The notes below the pieces were generated by a model. It ran no database searches. It saw only the letters and a program-made list of their open reading frames with translations, and was not told the origin of the DNA. A stretch of 44,724 bases of DNA, from assembly GCA_025471175.1 (NCBI GenBank), contig GCA_025471175.1_4338.1; one strand, given 5' to 3'. Below, piece by piece: positions 5,449 to 38,338 of this stretch (positions are counted from its first letter, which is position 1; every line of letters starts with the position of its first letter). The translations under genes were made by a program, and so were the position numbers. This DNA comes from a phage.

Positions 5449-5577
5449 ATGACGAAGTTAATAGTTCCACAGCTACGCCGCCAGAAACACGGCGCTGATT
5501 TCTTCGCACCGGTAAAGATGAACCGCGCAATGCGCCGTATGCAGGAAGCCTTAGAACGTGCGGAGAAAAAGAAATGA
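5449..5577 (+). CDS. hypothetical small basic protein (42 aa)
   Basis: Below ORF-track cutoff; AAGG RBS; stop overlaps ATG of primase-helicase. Confidence 0.35.
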   Translation: MTKLIVPQLRRQKHGADFFAPVKMNRAMRRMQEALERAEKKK

Positions 5578-7835
5578 ATATTGTTTTTGCAACGCTGCGT
5601 AATACATTCGATAAAAACCCGGTAGCCCGTGAAATGCCACTGGAGCAGTTTGTAGAGTATGTCTGCGATACATCGAAGCGCCTGTCCGTAGACCCGTCAT
5701 GGACTAAGGAAGAGTACGACGCGGCCAAGATTAAGCAGAAAGCAATTGCGCCTGTTGGTGGTCGCCGTAAGAACGCGATTCTGGAAGATAGTGTGGTTAA
5801 GTTCGACTTTGACCATCTCAACCGTACTCAGTACCGCGACCTGACCCGCAAATTCAAGAACGCTCCGTTCTTCAATATTCTGCACACAACGGCGTCGCAT
5901 CAGCACGCGTGTAAAAACGGTGATTACGCCTTTCGCGTTCTGGTTCCGGCTCGCACTCCGTTTAACTCTAACGACGCGTGGATGGTGCAACGTGCTATTT
6001 GTGCGGAGTTAGAAATAGACGAAGCGTTGCGCGACCACTGCACGGAAGACGGCAACCGCCTTATCTACCTGCCGCACAAAGAGTCGAAGATAACGGTTAC
6101 AGAAGGGCGTGTCATCCGTGCGGAGCGGTACATCAAGAAAGCCGAAGAGATGGGGCTGCGTAAACGTGAAGCTAAGACACTTGCCGCCGATGAGCACGGG
6201 CTTAACGCAGATATAGCGCATTTCTGCGAAGCAGAGCTTGGCCTTGACGCTTTATCTTCCGGGCGTGGGTATGAAGTGCCGTGCCCTAACGAACATCTAC
6301 ATACAGGCAAAGGCTCCACCAGCATCATGCTTGATGGTAAAGAAGTGCGCTTTGTGTGCCAGCACACGAATAACGGTGCTTGCACTGAGCTTAACCGCCG
6401 GCAACATTTGGCTTTGCGCATGTGCGGCCTGCCTGACGAGCTTAACGTAGACAAGCAACCTATCAGTATTAACAGCATTCGTGCGGCTCTGCCTGATTTA
6501 CCGGACGAAGATATTGAAGAACTACACCGCACAGAGAACGAGGAGCCTGTAACTTGTACGCTGGAAGACCTCGAAGACGAGCCGGAAGTAGAAAAAGAAC
6601 CTGCTTACCCCGTAGTAGACGGCCTTATGCAGACCAATGAGTCATTCTACATTTGCGCAAAGTCCCACACTGGTAAGTCAACATTTAGTATGGCGATTGA
6701 TGCTGCTATCGCCGCCGAAAAAAGATATGCGTTCGGCGGGGCTGAGGTCGCGGAAGGTCATGTGTTTATTTTTGCGGGTGAAGGTGCGCAGTCGTTCGAA
6801 CGACATAAAAAATCTTTGCAGATTGCCCTTGGCGATAACTTGGACCGCTTGCACATTATCGATTGTGTTGCGGAGGGGTGTAACTTACTAGACGAAGCAT
6901 GGCGACGTCAGGCGGTGAGAATGATGCGCCGTGTTGCCGGTGAAGAGAGAATTGTAAAGGTTACGTTTGATACTCTACAAACTTGCATACCGGGCTTCGA
7001 CGAGAACGACAACAGGTCGATGAAAGAAGCTGCGCAGGCGCTTAACGAAATAGCATCGACGCTTAACGCCGCGGTAGGTGCTATGGTGCACCCGACTAAA
7101 AACATCGATGAAACCGTACCATCCGAGAACGGCATGATGCCGAAGGGTGGTAGTGATTTTCACAACTCCATCGATAACGGGATGTTCCTGCATAAGCCGG
7201 ACAACGACAATAACTTAGAGATAAACCTGTATCACATAAAGAACAGAAACGGAGAACGGCAGAAAGCCAGAGGATTCGTAATACAGAAGATTCAGATAGC
7301 GGAACCGCCAGAAAAGAAAGAACCAACTCACAACTTCATGGGTCTTCCGGAAGGGTACAGTAGCGATGATGTACGCGATTTTGACGCAGGAAATCCACAT
7401 ATTGACGTCTTTGTTAACTTCAACGCCTTCTCTGTCTTCGTGAAGAAAGTAGAAGGCATGACCGACGAACAGAAGGAAGCAGTTAAAGAAAAGGTAGGCC
7501 AGTTCGAGAAACTGGATACCAAAGAAGCTACGGTTATTTACGCATTAGGTAAATTGCAGGAGCAGGGTGATGACAAGCGAGGGTTCTCCATGTCAGCTAT
7601 CGTCAAAGCCGCGAAAGAAGATAGTTACGGCGTGCCGATTAACGCTAATAACGACCTTAGAAAGAAACTGGAAGAGATGCACGAGGCCGGGGTTATAGTC
7701 TCAGGTCTGGATAACAACAACAGGCCCATACCTAAGCAGTACCGGCTGCCGTGGGGTATAAACGATAACAAGATTCCGAAGACAATATACGAGCCCAATG
7801 AGATGCTGACAGTGACAGAGGAGGATTTGGAATAG
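5574..7835 (+). CDS. putative DNA primase-helicase
   Basis: 753 aa; P-loop AKSHTGKST in C-terminal half; N-terminal half has Cys/His cluster and FDFDH-type motif suggesting a primase domain; first large gene of replication module. Confidence 0.65.
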   Translation: MNIVFATLRNTFDKNPVAREMPLEQFVEYVCDTSKRLSVDPSWTKEEYDAAKIKQKAIAPVGGRRKNAILEDSVVKFDFDHLNRTQYRDLTRKFKNAPFFNILHTTASHQHACKNGDYAFRVLVPARTPFNSNDAWMVQRAICAELEIDEALRDHCTEDGNRLIYLPHKESKITVTEGRVIRAERYIKKAEEMGLRKREAKTLAADEHGLNADIAHFCEAELGLDALSSGRGYEVPCPNEHLHTGKGSTSIMLDGKEVRFVCQHTNNGACTELNRRQHLALRMCGLPDELNVDKQPISINSIRAALPDLPDEDIEELHRTENEEPVTCTLEDLEDEPEVEKEPAYPVVDGLMQTNESFYICAKSHTGKSTFSMAIDAAIAAEKRYAFGGAEVAEGHVFIFAGEGAQSFERHKKSLQIALGDNLDRLHIIDCVAEGCNLLDEAWRRQAVRMMRRVAGEERIVKVTFDTLQTCIPGFDENDNRSMKEAAQALNEIASTLNAAVGAMVHPTKNIDETVPSENGMMPKGGSDFHNSIDNGMFLHKPDNDNNLEINLYHIKNRNGERQKARGFVIQKIQIAEPPEKKEPTHNFMGLPEGYSSDDVRDFDAGNPHIDVFVNFNAFSVFVKKVEGMTDEQKEAVKEKVGQFEKLDTKEATVIYALGKLQEQGDDKRGFSMSAIVKAAKEDSYGVPINANNDLRKKLEEMHEAGVIVSGLDNNNRPIPKQYRLPWGINDNKIPKTIYEPNEMLTVTEEDLE

Positions 7836-9258: not shown

Positions 9259-9602
9259 CGGATAAATGGTGGCTTAATTTGCGCAGCGGTGACAAGGTTT
9301 ACACCGTCGGTGACCGCAGAAAGAACAGCGGCGTAGCTACTGTGTTACAAAACGGCAAAAAGTACATCCGCATTGCGCATGAAGCCCGGGCGCTCCGCGT
9401 GAATAAATCTTCTGGTAGGCTTGAGGATTACCCGAAAACATTAATATACAAAAGTGAAAAGCATCACATGGTCGCTGTTGACGCAAGACGTCAGTTCGCA
9501 GGAATGTTGCAACAGTTAAGCGACTTACATCGCGATGATTCTTTCACCCCCTCAGAAGAACAGCTACAGGCATTAAACTTGTATTTGGAGAGTTTACGAT
9601 GA
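9255..9602 (+). CDS. hypothetical protein (115 aa)
   Basis: ORF track 9240..9602; ATG at 9255 has GGAG upstream and ATGA overlap. Confidence 0.45.
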   Translation: MTDKWWLNLRSGDKVYTVGDRRKNSGVATVLQNGKKYIRIAHEARALRVNKSSGRLEDYPKTLIYKSEKHHMVAVDARRQFAGMLQQLSDLHRDDSFTPSEEQLQALNLYLESLR

Positions 9603-10840
9603 TTCTAAAAGAACGCGGCGGCAATAACGATGTTCACGCCTTACTTTCGCCGTCAGGTGCTAAAAAATGGCTGTCATGCGCGGCATCACTGGCCTGTGAA
9701 AAAGATATTCCTAACACGTCGGGTAAATCCGCCGTTACGGGGACAGCGTGCCACACCATAGCTGAAGTCCATCTCAACGCCTATATCCGCGGCACTGCGT
9801 TGCCGTTAGAGCGTGAAGTTGGCGCTTACGTGCTGGATGAGGGTAAAGGCCAGATTAAGGCGCTAATCAGCCCGATGAAAGGCGCGGTACTGATTACGGC
9901 GGACATGATTGAGCAGGTGCGAAAGTACACCGACTACTGCAAACCGATTATCGATGTAGCAACTTACGCCAAGCTGGAAATGCGCGTCAATCTTACTGAG
10001 GTATTGCATCCTGGGTATGAAGGCGTTGAGACGTTCGGAACCGCTGACCTTGTTGCCGTTCAGGAACTGGCTAACACTGACGGGCACATGCTTATCATCG
10101 GCGACCTGAAAACAGGACGGCATCGTGTCGAAGCGAAAGAAAACAAGCAGCTTATGCTCTACGCTCTAGGTGTTTATCGCCGACTCAAGAGACGTTATAA
10201 CATAACAACCGTTCATCTGGTCATCTTTCAGCCATACGCTGGCGGCGCGTCGGAGTGGGGCATCTCGGTTGAAGGTCTGGAACTGTTCGCTAAGTTTGCG
10301 CAGAAACGGGCGCTGTTAGCTCTTGATGCGTATTTCCGTGGTAAAAAGAACCTGAAAGCGTCGGACTTCAGGCCGTCTGTCGACGGTTGCCAATGGTGCC
10401 GTTTCTCAGAGCAGTGCGCCGCGCGTACAAAAACCGTCAACGCGGTGCTGGCGGAAGAACTGGAGGACGACTTTGCGCTGGAACTTACGCCGGAGGAACT
10501 CGTAGCTGAGTACGAGAAGTTGCCGTTGTTGCGCCAGCACATCGACAAGGTTGAGAAAGCTATGGCTGCCGCGTTGCATTCCGGTAAGAAAGTTCCTGGG
10601 TACAAGCTGGTTGAAGGTAAGATGGGCAATCGTGCGTGGAAAGACGCGGAGAAAGTAACAGAACTCTACGGCGACAAGCTGACTAAAGAAGTGCTCATGA
10701 CGCCGACCGAAGCGGTTAAAGTTGTGCCGGAAGAAGAACTGAAAGACTTCATCACACGTAAACCAGGTGCCCCATGCATCACAACGGCAGACGACAAACG
10801 GCCTGAGTGGAATCAGGTTAGTGAAGAAGATTTGGAATAA
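9599..10840 (+). CDS. PD-(D/E)XK-type nuclease, DUF2800/Cas4-like
   Basis: 413 aa; N-terminal ALLSPSGAKKWLSCAAS and C-terminal Cys cluster CQWCRFSEQC recalled as typical of DUF2800 phage nucleases. Confidence 0.55.
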   Translation: MILKERGGNNDVHALLSPSGAKKWLSCAASLACEKDIPNTSGKSAVTGTACHTIAEVHLNAYIRGTALPLEREVGAYVLDEGKGQIKALISPMKGAVLITADMIEQVRKYTDYCKPIIDVATYAKLEMRVNLTEVLHPGYEGVETFGTADLVAVQELANTDGHMLIIGDLKTGRHRVEAKENKQLMLYALGVYRRLKRRYNITTVHLVIFQPYAGGASEWGISVEGLELFAKFAQKRALLALDAYFRGKKNLKASDFRPSVDGCQWCRFSEQCAARTKTVNAVLAEELEDDFALELTPEELVAEYEKLPLLRQHIDKVEKAMAAALHSGKKVPGYKLVEGKMGNRAWKDAEKVTELYGDKLTKEVLMTPTEAVKVVPEEELKDFITRKPGAPCITTADDKRPEWNQVSEEDLE

Positions 10841-10929: not shown

Positions 10930-11562
10930 ATGGGTATTAAGCTGAATCTGCGTAAAGTAAACACTGCCTGGGTTAACGTATTCGAACGCGAAAAAGACCG
11001 TGAAAACGATGATGGCTCCATCACTAAAGGCCAGTACAGCGCGACTATAATCCTGCCATCTGACCACGCGCAAATCGACGCGCTCTACGACACTGTCTAC
11101 GCTGTAGTTGAAGAAGCGTTAGGCGCAGCCGCTGCCGAGAAGTGGATGAAGTCCAACTACGGCGAAGGTAAGCACATGGATAAATGTGCAATTAAAGATA
11201 TTGCTGAACGCGACAATCCGTTTGAAGACTTCCCGGAAGGCTTCTACTTCAAAGCTAAGGCACAGAAACAGCCACTGATTGTAACATCTAAAAAAGGTGA
11301 GACTCAGGTAGAGCAGGACTTCAACGTAGACGGCGAACAGATTGAAGGTGAACAGGTTTACAGTGGCTGCGTAGCTAATGTAAGCGTTGAAATCTGGTTC
11401 AGCCAGAAATATAAAGTTCTAGGCGTTAACCTGCTGGCAATTAAATATGTTGGCGAAGGTAAAGCGTTTGGTGGTTCTAAAGTCGCCGCAAGCGTCAATG
11501 ACCTGGAAGACGATGACGATGAAAAAGATGAAGCACCTCGCCGCGAACGTCGTCGCCGTTAA
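10930..11562 (+). CDS. putative ssDNA-binding protein (DUF2815-like)
   Basis: 210 aa with acidic Asp/Glu-rich tail; sits beside the DUF2800-like nuclease and upstream of DNA polymerase. Confidence 0.45.
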   Translation: MGIKLNLRKVNTAWVNVFEREKDRENDDGSITKGQYSATIILPSDHAQIDALYDTVYAVVEEALGAAAAEKWMKSNYGEGKHMDKCAIKDIAERDNPFEDFPEGFYFKAKAQKQPLIVTSKKGETQVEQDFNVDGEQIEGEQVYSGCVANVSVEIWFSQKYKVLGVNLLAIKYVGEGKAFGGSKVAASVNDLEDDDDEKDEAPRRERRRR

Positions 11563-11651: not shown

Positions 11652-11777
11652 ATGAAGCCACTTCCGTGGTACGCGGATGAGTACCGCGCCGGGTACAGAC
11701 ATGTGTGGATTTGTCGTGATTGTATGAAAATAAGATTAAGCGAAACGAAGGCACTGGATTTAAGGAAAAAGAAATGA
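11652..11777 (+). CDS. possible small leader ORF (41 aa)
   Basis: ATG ORF whose TGA overlaps the polymerase ATG (ATGA); no clear SD. Confidence 0.25.
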   Translation: MKPLPWYADEYRAGYRHVWICRDCMKIRLSETKALDLRKKK

Positions 11778-14014
11778 GCTACTTATACCTGGACTTTGAA
11801 ACATTCTCCGAAGCCGATTTGAAGAAAGTTGGCGCCTACGCTTACGCCGAACATCCAACTACCGAAGTGCTAATCTGTACATATGCTTTTGACGACGAGC
11901 CTGTACAGGTATGGGACTGCACCGACGGCAGCGACATGCCGGGTGATTTGCACCGCGCACTGCGCCGTCTGGTGAAGCCGAACAGCCGCATTAAGATGGT
12001 GTGGCATAACGGCTCAATGTTCGACCGCCTCATCATGAAGCACTGCTGGGGATTTGATATTCCTGTAAGTAGCACCATCGACACGATGATTTGGGCGTTT
12101 CGCCACGCTCTGCCTGGCTCACTTGATGCATTGTGCGAAGTGCTGGGCGTATCTGCGGACAATGCAAAAGATAAACGCGGCAAGGCGCTTATTCAGCGTT
12201 TCGCTAAACCGACGCCGAAGAACTACAAAATCCGCCGCTACACCGCAGAAACACACCCGGACGAGTGGGCACTGTTCATTAAGTACGCCGTGAGCGACAT
12301 CACTGCGATGCGTGAAGTCTTCCATAAGCTGCCGCGTTGGGGTAACTCCGAGTTCGAGGACCGTGTACTGGAACTGGACCAGTTAATCAACGACCGCGGG
12401 TTTAAGGTTGACGTCGCACTGGCAGAAGCCGCAATTGAAGCCGTGGAGAAACACAAGGCACAGCTACAGGAAGAAGCCCAACGTAAATACGGCGGCTCAC
12501 TTACTGGTAAAGACTTCCTTCCGATTCTGCGTGAACTAGCACCGGCGCACCGAATCCACAATGCGCAGAAGTCAACGCTGAATGACCTGCTGGCGGATGA
12601 TGATTTGCCAGACGATGCCCGCACGATTATCGAAATGCGCCTCGGGGCCGCGTCCACGGCGTCAACGAAATATAACCCGCTGCTGTTGGGCCGCTCGTCG
12701 GACGACCGCCGCCGGGGTTGCATCCAGTATGGAGGGGCCAAGCGTACGTTACGGTTCGCGGGTAAAGGCTTCCAGCCACAGAACCTGGCGCGAGGGTACT
12801 ATCACGACGACCCGAAGAACGAAAAGAAGAAAGTACGTTATGACTGGATGTCAGAGAAGGACTGGTGGAGAGTAACACACCCATTGTCTCACGGAATCGA
12901 CCTGTTGTTAAAAGGCCGTGCGCATCGCCGTTTTGATGTGGCCAAGCTAACGGCATCGACGGTGCGCAGCTGCATAATACCGGAAGCAGGGTATAAGTTT
13001 GTCGTTGCCGACTACTCTAACGTTGAAGGCCGAGGGCTTGCGTGGCTGGCGGGTGAAGACGATTTAATAGAAGTATTTGTAAACGGGGTTGATGTGTACA
13101 AGAAACTCGCATCAACCGTGTTCAACGTTAGCTATGACGACGTAACAAAGGACCAAAGACAAATAGCCAAAGCAATGGTTCTGGGCCTCGGCTACGCGGG
13201 GGGTGTCGGTGCTTTCGTCACGTTTGCTAAAAACTTAGGTCTTGATTTGAATGATATGACACGCACTTTAGACGGAACTTTCCCGGACCATATTTGGGCC
13301 ACTACCGCACGCGGTTACGAGTGGGCACGTATCCAGGAGGCCAAGCGGCCGCCACGTCCTGGTGAAAAGGATGACCGACCATCATATATTCTTGATAAGA
13401 AAGTGTGGCGTACCTGTGACGCTTTAAAGCGTATGTACCGAGAAGCTAATCCTGCAATAGTCCAATTCTGGCGAGATATTGAAGACGCGGCAATGGCAGC
13501 TATCCGCAATCCTGGTAAAGAGTTCACCGCAGGGCCGCGGGGAGTTAAGTTTTCGCGCAACGTAGAAACAGACAACAACGGCAACAAAGTCGCGGGTTGG
13601 TGGTTGCGCATGACGTTGCCGTCTGGACGCGTTATGTCTTACCCAGGCGTCGGATTGAGTGTATCGAAAGAGACAGACGAAGATGGAAAGGTGTCTACTA
13701 ACGTGCGCATCAAGTACCAGGGCGAAAATCAGTTAACCCGTCAGTGGGGCTTTCAGTACACCTATTCCGGTAAACTGGTGGAAAACTGCACGCAGGCGCT
13801 GTGCCGTGATTTGCTGGCTAATGCGCTGCTGAACGTCGAAGCAAACGGCTACCCGATTGTGCTTCATGTTCACGATGAGATTATCTGCGAGACACCAGAT
13901 ACGCCGGAATACAATGTCGCAGAGCTTGAGCGATTGATGTGCGAATTGCCGGAATGGGCGGAGGGTTTCCCTCTTGTAGCGGAAGGTGCGGAGTTAAAAC
14001 GCTATGCTAAGTAA
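11774..14014 (+). CDS. family A DNA polymerase with 3'-5' exonuclease domain
   Basis: ORF track 11720..14014; ATG at 11774 has AAGGA RBS; LYLDFETFS exo motif; ADYSNVEGRGLA (motif A-like), RQIAKAMVLGLGYAGG (motif B-like), HVHDEI (motif C). Confidence 0.9.
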   Translation: MSYLYLDFETFSEADLKKVGAYAYAEHPTTEVLICTYAFDDEPVQVWDCTDGSDMPGDLHRALRRLVKPNSRIKMVWHNGSMFDRLIMKHCWGFDIPVSSTIDTMIWAFRHALPGSLDALCEVLGVSADNAKDKRGKALIQRFAKPTPKNYKIRRYTAETHPDEWALFIKYAVSDITAMREVFHKLPRWGNSEFEDRVLELDQLINDRGFKVDVALAEAAIEAVEKHKAQLQEEAQRKYGGSLTGKDFLPILRELAPAHRIHNAQKSTLNDLLADDDLPDDARTIIEMRLGAASTASTKYNPLLLGRSSDDRRRGCIQYGGAKRTLRFAGKGFQPQNLARGYYHDDPKNEKKKVRYDWMSEKDWWRVTHPLSHGIDLLLKGRAHRRFDVAKLTASTVRSCIIPEAGYKFVVADYSNVEGRGLAWLAGEDDLIEVFVNGVDVYKKLASTVFNVSYDDVTKDQRQIAKAMVLGLGYAGGVGAFVTFAKNLGLDLNDMTRTLDGTFPDHIWATTARGYEWARIQEAKRPPRPGEKDDRPSYILDKKVWRTCDALKRMYREANPAIVQFWRDIEDAAMAAIRNPGKEFTAGPRGVKFSRNVETDNNGNKVAGWWLRMTLPSGRVMSYPGVGLSVSKETDEDGKVSTNVRIKYQGENQLTRQWGFQYTYSGKLVENCTQALCRDLLANALLNVEANGYPIVLHVHDEIICETPDTPEYNVAELERLMCELPEWAEGFPLVAEGAELKRYAK

Positions 14015-34258: not shown

Positions 34259-34558
34259 TTAGCTTACAGTTCCTGCGTTTTTAAGCGCGGTTAACAGGTT
34301 CGCTACGGTAGTGCGCAGCGCGGTAACATCGGTTAGGAGTTTGTTGTACTCCACTACAAGCGCGCCGAACTCGGCTTTAGTCGGTTCAGCAGCGGACTGC
34401 TCCCCTGCGGCTGCGGTAACGGCCGCAGGTGCATCCACAGTAGCTGACTTTTTAACCCCACCAACTACGCTGGTAGTAGCAGGTGCGACAGGGATATCAA
34501 AGTCGCCGAAATCGACATTCTGAAGGCTGCGCGGCAAGCCTTTTCCGGTCTTGGCCAT
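34259..34558 (-). CDS. hypothetical structural protein (99 aa)
   Basis: Ala/Thr-rich with helical C-terminus; between capsid terminator and Ig-like gene. Confidence 0.45.
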   Translation of the reverse strand: MAKTGKGLPRSLQNVDFGDFDIPVAPATTSVVGGVKKSATVDAPAAVTAAAGEQSAAEPTKAEFGALVVEYNKLLTDVTALRTTVANLLTALKNAGTVS

Positions 34559-34569
34559 AATTTACCTCT

Positions 34570-34601
34570 TAGTAAATGAAAAGAGGGACCGAAGTCCCTC
34601 T
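34570..34601 (-). terminator. rho-independent terminator after major capsid gene
   Basis: agagggac-cgaa-gtccctct hairpin followed on minus strand by UUUCAUUUACU. Confidence 0.55.
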
Positions 34602-34619
34602 CGATTATATCTTATAACC

Positions 34620-35669
34620 TTAAGCACCGTCACCAGTTACCAGGAAGGCAATCGGTACATGCTTACGGTCAACCACACGGTTCCAGTTGGAGGCGTTCGC
34701 CAGGTCCTGCCAGGAAGCAGAGCGTGCTACAGTCTCGGTGCCGTTACCAGTGATTACCGCGCTGGTGAAGCTGTAGCCAAACGGATGCAGCAACCAGGTC
34801 TTACGGGTCCACAGGGTTTCGACACCACCACCGTTACCGCGAGACGCTTCGCGCTCATATTCCAGCGGGTTGGACGGAGAGCCTTCGCCGTAACCGATAG
34901 CGCCGTTGCCGAAGATAATGGAGATGAACTTACGTCTCGGGCCGGTGCCGACTACGGTCATGCTGTCGTCAACAATCACGCGGTAGCCCTGGTAAGTAGC
35001 AAACATGGTGTTGTTATCGGCGTCGCGGATGAAGTCGATAAGCTGCTGTTTACGTGCCTGCGCATATACGAAGCTGTGCATCGCGATAGCGCCCAACACT
35101 TCACCGCCGTTGCCCATCAGCGCATCACCCATAGTCTGGGTAGCGTCGATGAACGCGCCCGAGTCGAAGCCCGGGGTGGCGGACACGTCCACTACCATGT
35201 CGTTCTGCTCGTGGTATGCGTCGGTAGCGGCTACGTTGTCGTTGTACAGACCGAGCGCGGTAGCAATCAGACGGCGTTGTGCCTGACGCTGCCAGAAGTT
35301 ATCCAGACGGGACGCTACGGATTGCAGCGGGTTCTGGCTGGTCAGTTCAACAGTCAAATCCGCCTGGCCGAAACCTTCGTTCAGATAAGCCACGCGAACA
35401 TCCATCTCACCGGTTTGCACGTTACGTGGGGTGGCGACATCCTGATACACATCGTTCGAGTAGTTCGGTTCGATAGAGGTATCAATCGCTTTCCAGTACG
35501 GCAGAACAGCTTTGTTGGACGGGCCGTTTGCGATAGCGGCGGCGTACGGAGTCGAGGTAAGGATACCGGACTGGAAGAACGCGGTTTTCTCTACCGGGTC
35601 CTCTGTCATGTAGGACAGGATTACCGATTCTTTACCAGTTACGATATCGCCGATAGTAGTAATTGCCAT
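34620..35669 (-). CDS. major capsid protein
   Basis: 349 aa immediately after scaffold gene with overlapping stop/start; followed by strong terminator. Confidence 0.8.
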   Translation of the reverse strand: MAITTIGDIVTGKESVILSYMTEDPVEKTAFFQSGILTSTPYAAAIANGPSNKAVLPYWKAIDTSIEPNYSNDVYQDVATPRNVQTGEMDVRVAYLNEGFGQADLTVELTSQNPLQSVASRLDNFWQRQAQRRLIATALGLYNDNVAATDAYHEQNDMVVDVSATPGFDSGAFIDATQTMGDALMGNGGEVLGAIAMHSFVYAQARKQQLIDFIRDADNNTMFATYQGYRVIVDDSMTVVGTGPRRKFISIIFGNGAIGYGEGSPSNPLEYEREASRGNGGGVETLWTRKTWLLHPFGYSFTSAVITGNGTETVARSASWQDLANASNWNRVVDRKHVPIAFLVTGDGA

Positions 35670-36373
35670 TATTTTTTCCTCAGGGCTTTAAGTTGCCGTT
35701 CAAATTCGGCAGGGTTCGATTCGTACAGAGCGATACGCTCCGCTTCACTCATGTCTTTAAACGCTGGTGCGGCCCCGCCGCCTTTGCTACCGGAAGCCCC
35801 GCCGCCGGAAGCTGCATTTGCTTTAATCAAATGCGAAAACGCTTTGTGTTCGCGCAGGTATTTGCGGAACTGTTCCGGGTCAGTCGTGATTACGTTGCCA
35901 TCTGCACCGACAAACTTAGTAACCACATCATCGCCGTCAAACTCGGTCTTAACGAACGGAGCAAGAATGTCTACGGCTTCCGGTGTGATGAAATCACCTG
36001 CGAAAGAGCCTAACACCGCTTTACGTTCGCTGCCGAGGATGCGCTCTGCCATTTTGGAGATGCGACCATCTTTCTCGGCTAACACCGGGTCATACTGGCT
36101 ACGAATCGTCTTTTCGAACTCGTCCATCTTACCAGCGGCTTTTAACGCCTCCCGGTGTGCGCGCTGCCGTTCTTCTTCGGCCTCTTTTGCTTTACGTGCG
36201 GCTTCTTTCTTCTCCACCAGCAATGCTTCCTGATTGGCCTTAAGTCCGGCAACTTCTTTCTCAATCATCGCCTGAACTTCTTCAGCGGTGAACATTTTTG
36301 GAGCGTCGCCACCGCCAGATTTATCTTCTGCCCCAGCTTCTTCCTGGAACGGATAGTGTAAAAAACGATTCAT
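35669..36373 (-). CDS. scaffolding protein
   Basis: ORF track 35669..36427 (TTG); ATG at 36371-36373 more likely; Ala/Lys/Glu-rich coiled coil. Confidence 0.55.
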   Translation of the reverse strand: MNRFLHYPFQEEAGAEDKSGGGDAPKMFTAEEVQAMIEKEVAGLKANQEALLVEKKEAARKAKEAEEERQRAHREALKAAGKMDEFEKTIRSQYDPVLAEKDGRISKMAERILGSERKAVLGSFAGDFITPEAVDILAPFVKTEFDGDDVVTKFVGADGNVITTDPEQFRKYLREHKAFSHLIKANAASGGGASGSKGGGAAPAFKDMSEAERIALYESNPAEFERQLKALRKK

Positions 36374-36455: not shown

Positions 36456-36719
36456 CTATTCCAGAATATTCCTCACGTAATCCTGCAACATGAACACTTT
36501 CAGTCTCAGTTGCCGTACACATTCGGCGTTCTGAACGTCGATAGCTAAATCCTCGTCAGCGTCGCTACTTGGCGGTGCCAGTTTGCACGGCGGCTGCATC
36601 ATCGTCGTATCCGGGGATGGAATTGGCGTTGGCAACGGCGTGGGACTTGAGCAGGACGCGAGCATCGTCGAAAGTGCACACGCTGCGGCCAGGCGTTTTA
36701 ATGTACTTAACGACTTCAC
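36456..36719 (-). CDS. o-spanin (Rz1-like lipoprotein), embedded
   Basis: 87 aa; LSTMLASC lipobox, Pro-rich; out of frame within the i-spanin gene. Confidence 0.55.
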   Translation of the reverse strand: MKSLSTLKRLAAACALSTMLASCSSPTPLPTPIPSPDTTMMQPPCKLAPPSSDADEDLAIDVQNAECVRQLRLKVFMLQDYVRNILE

Positions 36720-36951
36720 GGGTAATCACCTCTGATTTCGTCTTGCCTTCGTTGTCAGCGGCGGCGGCCTTAGATTCGTCCTGCTGCTGCCGTTGTGTTT
36801 TCTTCACTAACTCAGCCTGCGCTTTCTGCTGTTGCTGCGAAACGAGATTCGCCCGGCCTTCGTTCCAGCCGCTGCGATACTGGTAGATTCCGTAGCCGTA
36901 TGTCAGGAGGATGAAACATGCTCCAGCTACGACAGTTGCGTTAAGATTCAT
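36565..36951 (-). CDS. i-spanin (Rz-like)
   Basis: 128 aa; N-terminal TM segment then Gln/Lys-rich coiled coil; contains embedded lipoprotein ORF. Confidence 0.6.
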   Translation of the reverse strand: MNLNATVVAGACFILLTYGYGIYQYRSGWNEGRANLVSQQQQKAQAELVKKTQRQQQDESKAAAADNEGKTKSEVITREVVKYIKTPGRSVCTFDDARVLLKSHAVANANSIPGYDDDAAAVQTGTAK

Positions 36952-36960
36952 GTTTCTCCT

Positions 36961-36997
36961 TTCTCGATAAGTAAAGCCCCGCCTTAAAGCGGGGCGC
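36961..36997 (-). terminator. candidate intrinsic terminator/attenuator between P_B leader and late genes
   Basis: Stem gccccgc/gcggggc (forward 36976-36995) followed on minus strand by UUUACUUAU; ~15 nt upstream of spanin RBS. Confidence 0.4.
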
Positions 36998-37169
36998 TAG
37001 TCCTTATCATTTAAACATAGAAACGGCGTAATCTCAGTAAACCAGTTACTTTTTACACAAGCAATAGAGTATGGCCCTTCCGAACGCGTCAGCGTAACTA
37101 CACTCAGGACTTACGTCCCGCTCCGTTACCTGCCCGCGCCGCGGTCGCTTGTTCATACTTCACAAGCTC
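36961..37169 (-). ncRNA. candidate ~200-nt leader RNA / sRNA, copy B
   Basis: Predicted transcript from P_B (37176-37204) to hairpin 36976-36995; homologous to copy A; no other promoter seen before the late operon. Confidence 0.3.
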
Positions 37170-37204
37170 AGGTGGAGCTTATCATATTTTCAGTGAAAAG
37201 TCAA
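37062..37204. repeat. copy B of the ~145-bp dispersed repeat
   Basis: See copy A; 34-nt identical block at 37139-37172. Confidence 0.7.
37176..37204 (-). promoter_or_regulatory. promoter P_B (extended -10), candidate late promoter
   Basis: Minus strand TTGACT-N17-TAAGCT with TGa before -10; same as P_A. Confidence 0.5.
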
Positions 37205-37218
37205 CTATTCGAATAGTT
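37203..37218. promoter_or_regulatory. perfect 16-bp palindrome, candidate regulator binding site
   Basis: AACTATTCGAATAGTT is its own reverse complement; abuts the -35 of P_B, centre ~41 bp upstream of predicted TSS; shares GAATAGT with the early promoter elements. Confidence 0.5.
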
Positions 37219-37269
37219 TATTCCAACGTTTACAATTGAGTGGAATAACTGGAATACGTAAATAAATAG

Positions 37270-37299
37270 TTTACAGACACCAACATAATAGGGTACTAT
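37270..37299 (+). promoter_or_regulatory. sigma70-like promoter with AATAG element
   Basis: TTTACA-N18-TACTAT; other strand reads AATAGtaccCTATT; AGGAGA RBS then ATG 37327. Confidence 0.5.
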
Positions 37300-37326
37300 T
37301 CAGTTAAATTAAACAGGAGATGATAA

Positions 37327-37848
37327 ATGGTTACTACAGTAATTACTTTCCCTGCGTATGTAGGGGCGAAAATATGCAGGGCTAAAAATGATGTTCGCTA
37401 CTATTTGAACGCTTTTTACATAGACCCTGAAGGATTGATAGTGTCTACGGACGGTCATAGATTGTTCTGCGACAATGTGAAGACCAACGTTGAGAAAGGG
37501 ACTCTCATAGACATCAAAGGGAGAGAGCCTTCTAAATTTAACTACGCAGAGGTAAACCACGACAACGGCAGTGTATCTTTCTATGACGATAATCGTGCGC
37601 TTATATGTACACTTCCGGTAGATGTTGTAGAAGGAAACTTTCCTGACTGGAGACGCGTGGCGCACATCACACCGGGTGTTGTCGACAGTATAGGGTTCAC
37701 TCTGCGCTATTTGGCAGACGCGTACAAGATTTCTAAGGCATACAAAAATGAAATTGCTCGTTTCGATTTCCAGGACCAAACCAGAGGATGCAAAATACAA
37801 TTTTCAAACACGGCCTTTATGGTGTTAATGCCTGCGCGATTTAAATAA
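37327..37848 (+). CDS. truncated DNA polymerase III beta sliding clamp (DnaN)-like protein
   Basis: 173 aa; DVRYYLNAF...STDGHRLFC, GNFPDWRRV, IGFTLRYLADA and C-terminal FMVLMPARFK parallel E. coli DnaN VRYYLNGM...TDGHRLAV, GRFPDYRRV, IGFNVSYVLDVL and YVVMPMRL (recalled from memory). Confidence 0.55.
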   Translation: MVTTVITFPAYVGAKICRAKNDVRYYLNAFYIDPEGLIVSTDGHRLFCDNVKTNVEKGTLIDIKGREPSKFNYAEVNHDNGSVSFYDDNRALICTLPVDVVEGNFPDWRRVAHITPGVVDSIGFTLRYLADAYKISKAYKNEIARFDFQDQTRGCKIQFSNTAFMVLMPARFK

Positions 37849-37853
37849 AACTA

Positions 37854-37877
37854 AGGCCCCATTACAGGGCCTTTTAT
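37854..37877. terminator. bidirectional rho-independent terminator
   Basis: aggccc-cattaca-gggcct then TTTTAT; between convergent genes. Confidence 0.55.
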
Positions 37878-38338
37878 CATTCTGGCTTAGTAACCTTCGC
37901 CGCTTTACTTACCACCTCTACACCATCGGCATCAGTAACCTTGACGAAGTAATCACCTGCCGCGTTGACAGTAAGAGACAAAGCTTCTTCTGGTGCGTTA
38001 ACGACTTCCTTCCCGTCTTTGTACCAGGTCAGCGAATATGGTGCTTTACCTGCCTTAACTTCGACAGTGATAGTTGCGCTGCCGTCTGCCAGTTCCTGGT
38101 CCTGCGGTTGCACAGAGAAATACACATCGCCCGCGTCCGCCAGATACGGAATCTCGTAAAGCATACCAGCCGCTGGTAGCGCAATGCCTGTTTTATCAGC
38201 AAACGGCATATCGTCTACGGGCGTACCTAGTACACTTTCGTCCCCAATAGACACCACGTTCTCACCGGAGCCAGACACGCGAGCAAACTGGACAACGCGA
38301 CGCGACGGTACATCAGTTACTTTGAAAAAGCCCATCAT
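37877..38338 (-). CDS. Ig-like domain protein
   Basis: 153 aa; YSLTWYKDGKEV...GDYFVKV is an Ig-like signature; start overlaps head morphogenesis stop. Confidence 0.5.
   Translation of the reverse strand: MMGFFKVTDVPSRRVVQFARVSGSGENVVSIGDESVLGTPVDDMPFADKTGIALPAAGMLYEIPYLADAGDVYFSVQPQDQELADGSATITVEVKAGKAPYSLTWYKDGKEVVNAPEEALSLTVNAAGDYFVKVTDADGVEVVSKAAKVTKPE

Follow-up and report, generated by a model that had tools for sequence, protein, structure and literature searches.

A truncated β-clamp homologue with a conserved partner-binding pocket, encoded in an accessory slot of a Kagunavirus-like phage

The β clamp (DnaN) is a hub of bacterial replication and repair, and its peptide-binding pocket is an antibiotic target. 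To our knowledge, all known clamp partners insert a clamp-binding motif (CBM; QLxLF or QLxLxF) in the hydrophobic cleft between domains II and III. Here we describe a gene predicted to encode a truncated clamp homologue, in the following termed mini-clamp, which is located at positions 37327..37848 on the plus strand of a phage contig of 44,724 nucleotides (GCA_025471175.1_4338.1 of the NCBI GenBank assembly GCA_025471175.1; "the window" refers to this whole stretch). The gene starts with ATG and encodes 173 amino acids, the coordinates including the stop codon. The window phage is a Kagunavirus-like siphophage (Guernseyvirinae) of E. coli whose late region is approximately 91% identical to those of the phages Ivi, fEg-Eco19 and fBC-Eco01.

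The mini-clamp resembles DnaN in sequence and fold, in the connector between domains II and III (G-x-F-P-D-[YW]-R-R-V), in 15 of the 18 pocket residues and in the M-P-x-R ending. However, DnaN comprises 366 residues in three clamp domains, whereas the mini-clamp lacks domain I, the N-terminal half of domain III, the dimer interface and one further channel helix, has an isoelectric point (pI) of 8.3 instead of 5.25, is encoded in a phage accessory cassette and scores far below the family cutoffs. Another shortened clamp is β* of E. coli, a UV-induced product of internal initiation in dnaN that consists of domains II and III, its start lying near the domain II boundary at which the mini-clamp also begins. 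The monomeric β variant I272A/L273A displays the pocket without a working ring interface and binds δ, which docks mainly via the pocket, more tightly than the dimer does (KD of ~7.5 nM as compared to ~460 nM in one study; PMC11139829). Both are full two- or three-domain proteins, whereas the mini-clamp additionally lacks half of domain III and belongs to a separately evolving phage family.

The processivity factors UL42, UL44, PF-8 and BMRF1 of herpesviruses consist of two complete domains with a basic DNA-binding face, and their partner is the C-terminus of the viral polymerase. In contrast, the polymerase of the window phage carries no such motif and the mini-clamp is dispensable among close relatives. 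Phages are furthermore known to interfere with the clamp network, as exemplified by Gp168 of Twort, MuC of Mu and the gp45-dependent late transcription of T4; MuC competes at the clamp and disturbs the Hda-dependent control (PMC12867686). Proteins of the Gp168/MuC type bind the clamp, whereas the mini-clamp imitates the binding site of the clamp and would bind its clients.

Clamp fold and partner-binding pocket

According to a phmmer search against the sequences of the PDB, the mini-clamp is similar to the E. coli β clamp with an E-value of 3.7e-5, its residues 16-116 corresponding to β 144-252 and its residues 117-171 to β 312-365; BLASTP against E. coli DnaN resulted in an E-value of 4e-7. 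The AlphaFold2 model, based on an alignment with 39 homologues, reached a predicted local distance difference test score (pLDDT) of 95.4 and a predicted template modelling score (pTM) of 0.91. It adopts the DNA-clamp (PCNA-like) fold, and its rigid superposition gave 2.4 Å over 160 residues. The family models score below their cutoffs: Pfam DNA_pol3_beta_2 with 17.2 bits (cutoff 27), the N- and C-domain models giving no match, and TIGR00663, the sole NCBIfam match, with 20.3 bits (cutoff 137.65). The mini-clamp is a genuine truncated β-clamp homologue. A preliminary description, made from the sequence alone, had recognised five DnaN motifs in the product, and these are indeed present in the proposed order (V23-R-Y-Y-L-N28, T41-D-G-H-R-L46, G103-N-F-P-D-W-R-R-V111, I122-G-F-T-L-R-Y-L-A-D131 and V166-L-M-P-A-R171), the similarity to clamps going beyond chance in the searches and the model.

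The same description had taken the product for half a clamp with one complete domain and the end of another, which agrees with the anatomy deduced here: the mini-clamp comprises domain II, the II-III connector and the C-terminal half of domain III (β 129-252 and 312-366). Domain I (β 1-~128) and the N-terminal half of domain III (β 253-311) have no counterpart in the alignment. The DnaN dimer is closed by contacts of Ile78 and Phe106 with Ile272 and Leu273, and of Lys74, Arg96, Arg103 and Arg105 with Glu298-304 (PMC11139829). Every dimer-interface residue named in that review falls in the β segments without counterpart, and the mini-clamp is probably unable to close a ring in the manner of DnaN.

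The domain II equivalent (β ~129-237) is formed by residues 1-101 (37327..37629, plus strand) and contributes the pocket residues R24, L27, T41, G43, H44, R45 and L46. Its secondary structure in the model consists of the strands E3-7, E30-33, E37-41, E45-50, E59-63, E73-77, E82-86 and E92-101 and the helix H8-17. The second helix of domain II is reduced to a short loop in the clade of the window protein and kept in longer relatives, so that this clade retains two of the four helices with which domains II and III line the channel. The connector equivalent (β D238-P249), E-G-N-F-P-D-W-R-R-V-A, corresponds to residues 102-112 (37630..37662, plus strand) with the pocket residues P106, R110 and V111. 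Residues 117-173 (37675..37845, plus strand) are equivalent to the C-terminal half of domain III (β 312-366) and provide the pocket residues T125, Y128, T152, V166, M168, P169, A170 and R171; T125 is replaced by Asn in β as well as in the family consensus. The protein ends two residues past R171 and has no C-terminal tail. As we interpret the topology of the clamp, it is the sheet of the C-terminal half of domain III that would lie against domain II, which would make the retained pieces spatially contiguous; the superposition of the model is consistent with this.

In β, subsite I of the pocket is formed by R152, L155, T172, G174, H175, R176, L177, P242, R246, V247, V360 and M362, and subsite II by H175, N320, Y323, V344, M362, P363, M364 and R365 (PMC11139829). 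Identity of the mini-clamp to E. coli β is concentrated in these positions, with 15 of the 18 pocket residues being identical as compared to 27 of the 137 other aligned positions (hypergeometric p=1.6e-7). A similar picture emerges within the family: among 39 members sharing ~25-30% identity, the mean frequency of the top residue is 0.80 in pocket columns and 0.43 elsewhere (Mann-Whitney p=7e-7). Seven columns of this alignment are invariant (T41, D42, G43, R45, P106, W108 and R109), four of them being pocket residues and the remaining three lying within the same two motifs, although W108 and R109 are not fixed in subfamilies further away. Conservation is higher in subsite I, where the Leu-Phe end of the CBM is held, than in subsite II. 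Judged from these sequence comparisons, the partner-binding pocket is retained in the mini-clamp, and evolution appears to have discarded the ring and kept the docking site. The part retained is exactly the partner-binding pocket, which the preliminary description had missed, and this points to the capture of clamp clients rather than of the clamp.

Expression signals and cargo slot

As described beforehand, the mini-clamp gene is the sole plus-strand gene between two structural blocks on the minus strand. Genes predicted to encode spanins, scaffold and major capsid protein are found on one side, and genes for the immunoglobulin-like (Ig-like) decoration protein, the head-morphogenesis protein, portal and terminase on the other. 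The plus strand also has an open frame of 560 amino acids (34551-36233) opposite the genes for major capsid protein and scaffold; it probably represents a stop-free antisense frame and not a gene.

The preliminary view that the gene stands alone and has a promoter and terminator of its own was likewise borne out at the level of predicted signals. A conserved expression block upstream of the gene (37255..37326, plus strand) comprises a promoter-like site, the 5' untranslated region (UTR) and a Shine-Dalgarno sequence (AGGAG, 37315-37319, plus strand). A consensus scan predicted a sigma-70-like promoter with TTTACA at 37270, a spacer of 18 nucleotides and TACTAT ending at 37299; an alternative -10 element reads CATAAT in the window and TATAAT in relatives. 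Part of the block, CCAAyATAATAGGGyACTATTCA, shows hardly any variation between five phages in which four different cargos follow it, and its conservation irrespective of the open reading frame (ORF) that follows supports a real expression signal. Downstream of the gene, a GC-rich hairpin (AAGGCCCC-ATTAC-AGGGCCTT, 37853..37873) has T-runs flanking it on both strands, on each of which it is scored as terminator-like. Folded as RNA it reaches -11.3 kcal/mol (z = -2.3), and 7 of 200 shuffled sequences fold at least as well. The hairpin is common to the mini-clamp gene on the plus strand and the convergent Ig-like head decoration gene on the minus strand, which ends at 37877.

The mini-clamp occupies this position in approximately 23 of 455 phage records matching the region. 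Golestan and the BASEL Kagunaviruses (Bas70-76) carry two small ORFs (phrog_13472 and an ORF of 33 amino acids) in the same slot and Jerseyvirus S102 an N6/N4 DNA methyltransferase, while the slot flanks are approximately 90% identical in Kagunaviruses with other cargo. The left flank (36904..37326), downstream of the i-spanin gene (36565-36951, minus strand), shares 94-96% identity with phages carrying other cargo according to blastn (Golestan, S102 and slot 1 of fBC-Eco01). The homology to these phages extends to 37302-37335, thereby including the promoter, the UTR and in one case the first codons, and restarts at 37835-37845, at the stop codon and terminator; the regions concerned are 36904-37326 and 37835-37880 of the window, L009 1405-2440, L010 1403-2642, and L001 3436-4469 and 5925-6560. 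In fBC-Eco01 an identical mini-clamp is located in a different slot, between the head-morphogenesis and portal genes, with its own copy of promoter and UTR. At the sequence level, the slot between the spanin and Ig-like decoration genes is a fixed expression socket with ORF-precise swaps of its cargo, in which the conserved promoter is joined by UTR and Shine-Dalgarno sequence in some phages, and the mini-clamp is optional for Kagunaviruses.

These features are those of phage morons or accessory cassettes, namely a predicted promoter and terminator of its own, the opposite strand within a late operon, patchy presence, alternative cargos and a deviating GC content (35-46% in the cassette as compared to ~52% in the flanks); the annotators of fEg-Eco19 have already noted a "possible moron gene product". 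It differs from morons in that promoter, UTR and terminator are part of the slot itself, different cargos making use of them, and in that the unit from promoter to terminator was copied to the second locus in fBC-Eco01.

Family, genomic contexts and labels

A profile search against 1.84 billion representatives detected 213 clusters at E<1e-30 and 12,590 at E<1e-10. The best 150 of the 213 clusters all comprise 141-265 amino acids and all but two span nearly the whole profile. BFVD holds many phage models of 163-210 amino acids with template modelling (TM) scores of 0.7-0.87, among them proteins of Serratia phage Rovert, the Pantoea phages LIET2 and PSKM and the Burkholderia phages BcepNazgul and AH2. 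Homologues are encoded in 223 GenBank phage records under the names "DNA polymerase III beta subunit/sliding clamp", "RusA-like resolvase" or "hypothetical". A protein 100% identical to the window mini-clamp is labelled "DNA polymerase III sliding clamp" in Escherichia phage fBC-Eco01, and gp15 of Bcep43 was already named "DNA Pol III b subunit fragment". The best 25 plasmid matches cover 60-86% of the query, the annotated ones being dnaN or DNA polymerase III subunit beta, and include no clear mini-clamp. None of the PADLOC models matches the mini-clamp, and no NCBIfam model is dedicated to it.

The best PHROG match, phrog_3007 (E=3.6e-36), is labelled "RusA-like Holliday junction resolvase". 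This label, which also concerns phrog_12598, is found on many deposited genomes, including many recent phage records, despite the clamp fold of the proteins. A Pfam search at E<=10 gave no RusA (PF05866) and nothing but DNA_pol3_beta_2, and no resolvase was found among the structural matches. A function as Holliday-junction resolvase is ruled out by fold and sequence, and the most plausible origin of the label is a mistaken annotation propagated from that of the PHROG family. One paper discussing the mini-clamp accepts the clamp annotation at face value (PMC9825357); the literature searched contained no functional study of the mini-clamp and no paper describing the pocket-only architecture or its implications.

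The genomic contexts are diverse. In Dhillonvirus and Bcep43 the mini-clamp gene likewise forms an antisense island within the head module. In Skatevirus-like phages (seszw, Bas79, Klebsiella phage 6991 and Vibrio phage pYD38-A) it is the last gene of a small opposite-strand operon, together with a gene for a ParB/KorB-like protein and sometimes a cytosine methylase. All of the eight genome-reduced mutants of seszw among the 40 records listed, which are a spread sample, retain the mini-clamp and the ParB-like gene, seszw_160S (MZ375326.1; our locus L015) being one of these mutants, while a gene between the two is missing in the smallest mutant. In temperate enterobacterial phages the mini-clamp is the first gene after a CI-like repressor and is followed by a DUF2800/PD-(D/E)XK exonuclease and an Enc34-type single-stranded-DNA-binding protein (SSB); a family-A polymerase, a methylase and a SNF2 helicase then follow in a Serratia prophage. 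The closest relatives outside the Kagunaviruses (40% identity) are the first genes of replication operons with a DUF2800 exonuclease, an Enc34-type SSB and a family-A polymerase, and the replication module of the window phage itself (5.5-17.2 kb) is of the same type. Early genes surround other members, with DUF932 or a DnaA-C-like protein nearby. A comparison of 78 viral loci, which form 28 groups at 70% identity, did not reveal a universal neighbour gene. The recurrent contexts are the operon of CI-like repressor, DUF2800 exonuclease and SSB, the island with ParB-like protein and methylase, and lambdoid early regions; their common theme is early expression and DNA metabolism.

Prophage mini-clamps were furthermore detected in 59 of 5,426 complete E. 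coli genomes and are annotated as "hypothetical protein" by PGAP in the six records listed. This variant comprises 188 amino acids and is encoded in a lambdoid early region beside BRO-N/ORF6N anti-repressor-like genes (L070 3974-4540; in E. coli chromosomes, for example, 2047656-2048222 of NZ_CP060075.1). Its pocket motifs read TNGHVA and FPDMERV in place of TDGHRL and FPDWRRV of the window protein, and its ligand may be different.

Approximately half of the family representatives carry a tail of 10-35 amino acids past M-P-x-R with a P-x-W-[AVIL] motif, the Trp being located 10-14 residues downstream, and tail-bearing proteins often end in Ala-Ala. The model of one such member, P0059 (L011 932-1573), has a pLDDT of 91.3; its tail (K-E-P-V-A-L-P-A-W-V) shows a pLDDT of ~82 without regular secondary structure, which suggests that the tail docks on the body of the modelled protein. 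The C-terminus of β is located at the pocket, and an Ala-Ala end resembles the ssrA/ClpX degron. The tail may act as a self-docking pseudo-ligand that caps the pocket, and in addition as a turnover signal; the position of the β C-terminus makes the capping attractive.

Possible functions of the mini-clamp

The window phage encodes a helicase-primase, an SSB, an exonuclease and a family-A polymerase. A scan of ten ORFs of the early region did not bring up any recognisable clamp loader. When the window was scanned with the strict CBM pattern Q[LIVM]x[LM]F, the sole match was QVLLF at residue 50 of the head-morphogenesis protein, approximately one match being expected by chance from a rough estimate based on amino-acid frequencies. 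Neither a strict nor a loose CBM was found in the family-A polymerase, and the mini-clamp itself contains no CBM.

The QVLLF of the head-morphogenesis protein was rejected as a partner of the pocket: Kagunavirus and Jerseyvirus conserve it regardless of whether they carry the mini-clamp, and the orthologues of Dhillonvirus and Bcep43 do not have it. The portal motifs QPTLF (window) and QLSLF (Bcep43 gp17) were dismissed as well, since their positions are not homologous and the Bcep43 motif lies inside an insertion. Gp17 of Bcep43 (L006 6523-8607), encoded two genes from gp15, is a portal-like protein with a C-terminal Nudix-like extension, and its QLSLF matches the consensus perfectly. The insertion is absent from the portals of Kagunavirus and Dhillonvirus, and the motif is not conserved across mini-clamp phages and may be due to chance.

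Several replication proteins of the window phage have conspicuous C-termini. The helicase-primase (5574-7835) and the DUF2800/PD-(D/E)XK exonuclease (9599-10840) share the acidic end V-[TS]-E-E-D-L-E, and the gp2.5-like SSB (10930-11562) has a basic tail (RRERRRR); the exonuclease and SSB of the Serratia prophage carry T7-like acidic aromatic tails (…AAEFI and …AEDFV). These acidic and basic ends are probably docking tails for a common replisome partner. The V[TS]EEDLE tails would be possible ligands of the pocket; their likeness to the tail of Pol III alpha (QVELEFD) is only loose. In the family-A polymerase of 764 amino acids (11720-14014) Pfam covers only residues 412-508 of the polymerase domain, together with a weak 3'-5' exonuclease match, and residues 482-578 match a PHROG "endonuclease" family. 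The polymerase may contain an inserted domain or strongly diverged palm and fingers.

With due reserve we favour the explanation, possible although short of probable, that the mini-clamp is a free and soluble CBM receptor of approximately 1.5 clamp domains which does not form a ring and competes with the host clamp for its clients. This reading is suggested because no phage protein offers a conserved canonical CBM and the pocket remains of the host type. Expressed from the conserved accessory slot in the head-gene block, the pocket-only protein would capture CBM-bearing clamp clients, and the competition would shift host replication and repair in favour of the phage. The cost to the window phage would be low given its own clamp-independent replisome with a family-A polymerase. 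The host-type pocket is kept in phages of Escherichia, Salmonella, Klebsiella, Vibrio, Burkholderia and uncultured hosts, a distribution that is easier to reconcile with a universal ligand than with a phage peptide specific to one lineage and that points to host clients. Since δ binds monomeric β tightly via the pocket, the clamp loader is an obvious candidate client. The binding of CBM peptides by the pocket, the host identity of the ligands and competition instead of recruitment are what we infer from these observations. The hijacking of the host clamp proposed in the preliminary description is plausible as a capture of clamp clients, but not as a capture of the clamp itself.

Several observations weigh against client capture by competition. 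The pocket is the most conserved part of DnaN in general and the detection by sequence is consequently anchored there; some residues of the pocket motifs (G43, P106, D42) may be conserved for folding, and pocket residues are altered in some subfamilies, as in the lambdoid E. coli prophages (TNGHVA for TDGHRL) and in Skatevirus (FPDIDRI). The replication operons in which the closest relatives lie are as compatible with a positive role in phage replication as with competition. Furthermore, no DNA polymerase is annotated in the ~35 of 47 kb examined of Bas79, and such phages must use Pol III and the clamp of the host. A general poison of clamp clients would hurt phages without a polymerase, which favours a selective target or a recruiting role.

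A wider version of client capture, which we hold to be possible but more doubtful, is that a dedicated family of pocket-only mini-clamps, spread over many phage lineages, intercepts the client network of the host clamp without touching the clamp, the tailed members being self-capped and short-lived decoys. The network intercepted would include the clamp loader, polymerases, Hda, mismatch repair and RecBCD.

Alternatively, the mini-clamp could serve as an adaptor that is tethered to the phage replisome or DNA and whose pocket recruits host clamp clients, for instance the Pol III core, or Pol I or ligase A for the maturation of Okazaki fragments, with neither a loaded ring nor a loader being needed. 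The conserved pocket would be equally expected here, and homologues in phages that depend on host Pol III, no polymerase being annotated in the genome portion that was examined, the position at the head of replication operons in relatives of the same module type, and the retention of the gene in the genome-reduced seszw mutants, one of which lost a neighbouring gene, all agree with recruitment. However, no tethering surface or phage partner was identified, and in most Kagunaviruses the gene is dispensable, its place between the ~90% identical flanks being taken by other cargo. The seszw gene may simply have escaped targeting, as the deletion library left out genes presumed essential by homology (PMC9825161). 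A conserved basic face for DNA binding is unlikely in view of family pI values from 5.7 to 9.0. We therefore regard such an adaptor as rather unlikely.

The preliminary description had also proposed an alternative ring for the phage polymerase. A processivity factor of the family-A polymerase could be a homo-oligomeric ring, for example a tetramer of the 1.5-domain protein in which two C-terminal half-domains join into one pseudo-domain, or a non-ring DNA-binding protein similar to UL42 and UL44. This would be in line with the more basic pI of the window protein compared to β, with a Lys conserved at the lost channel helix (K64, aligned to β R205 and found in 87% of the sequences) and with the association with family-A polymerase modules in several lineages. 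Yet the mini-clamp lacks both elements of the DnaN ring interface as well as two of the four helices that line the channel in domains II and III, neither a loader among the early-region ORFs nor a CBM on the polymerase was found, the family is not consistently basic, and the patchy presence among phages with nearly identical slot flanks conflicts with a function of this kind. The ring is not favoured by these findings, and a processivity factor in either form seems improbable.

Even less probable is a poison that binds host DnaN in mixed rings or by capping the opened ring, which had been the other suggestion. The homology to DnaN and the existence of phage clamp inactivators such as Twort Gp168 (PDB 7evp; PMC11139829) speak for it, but the deleted segments are exactly those that form the DnaN-DnaN interface, the β dimer is held at picomolar affinity (PMC11139829) and the mini-clamp has no CBM for docking to the host pocket, so that no support for this function was obtained. 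A functionless remnant of a captured dnaN, as the truncation, the low GC content and the patchy presence among close relatives might indicate, is scarcely credible given the same truncated architecture across hundreds of clusters at 50% identity, motifs that are invariant at ~25-30% overall identity, an intact reading frame with conserved expression signals and a confidently predicted fold.

Public genomes already contain annotations of the gene, many of them misleading: it is named a functional sliding clamp of DNA polymerase III or a RusA-like resolvase in more than 200 phage genomes, and a hypothetical protein in E. coli prophages. If the capture of clients is true, the mini-clamp would be a small, monomer-sized natural scaffold on which ligands of a pocket targeted by antibiotics could be studied or screened. 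It would also represent a new viral route to reprogramme the clamp hub, in which the phage mimics the docking site and not its ligands and the clients of the clamp are titrated or redirected.

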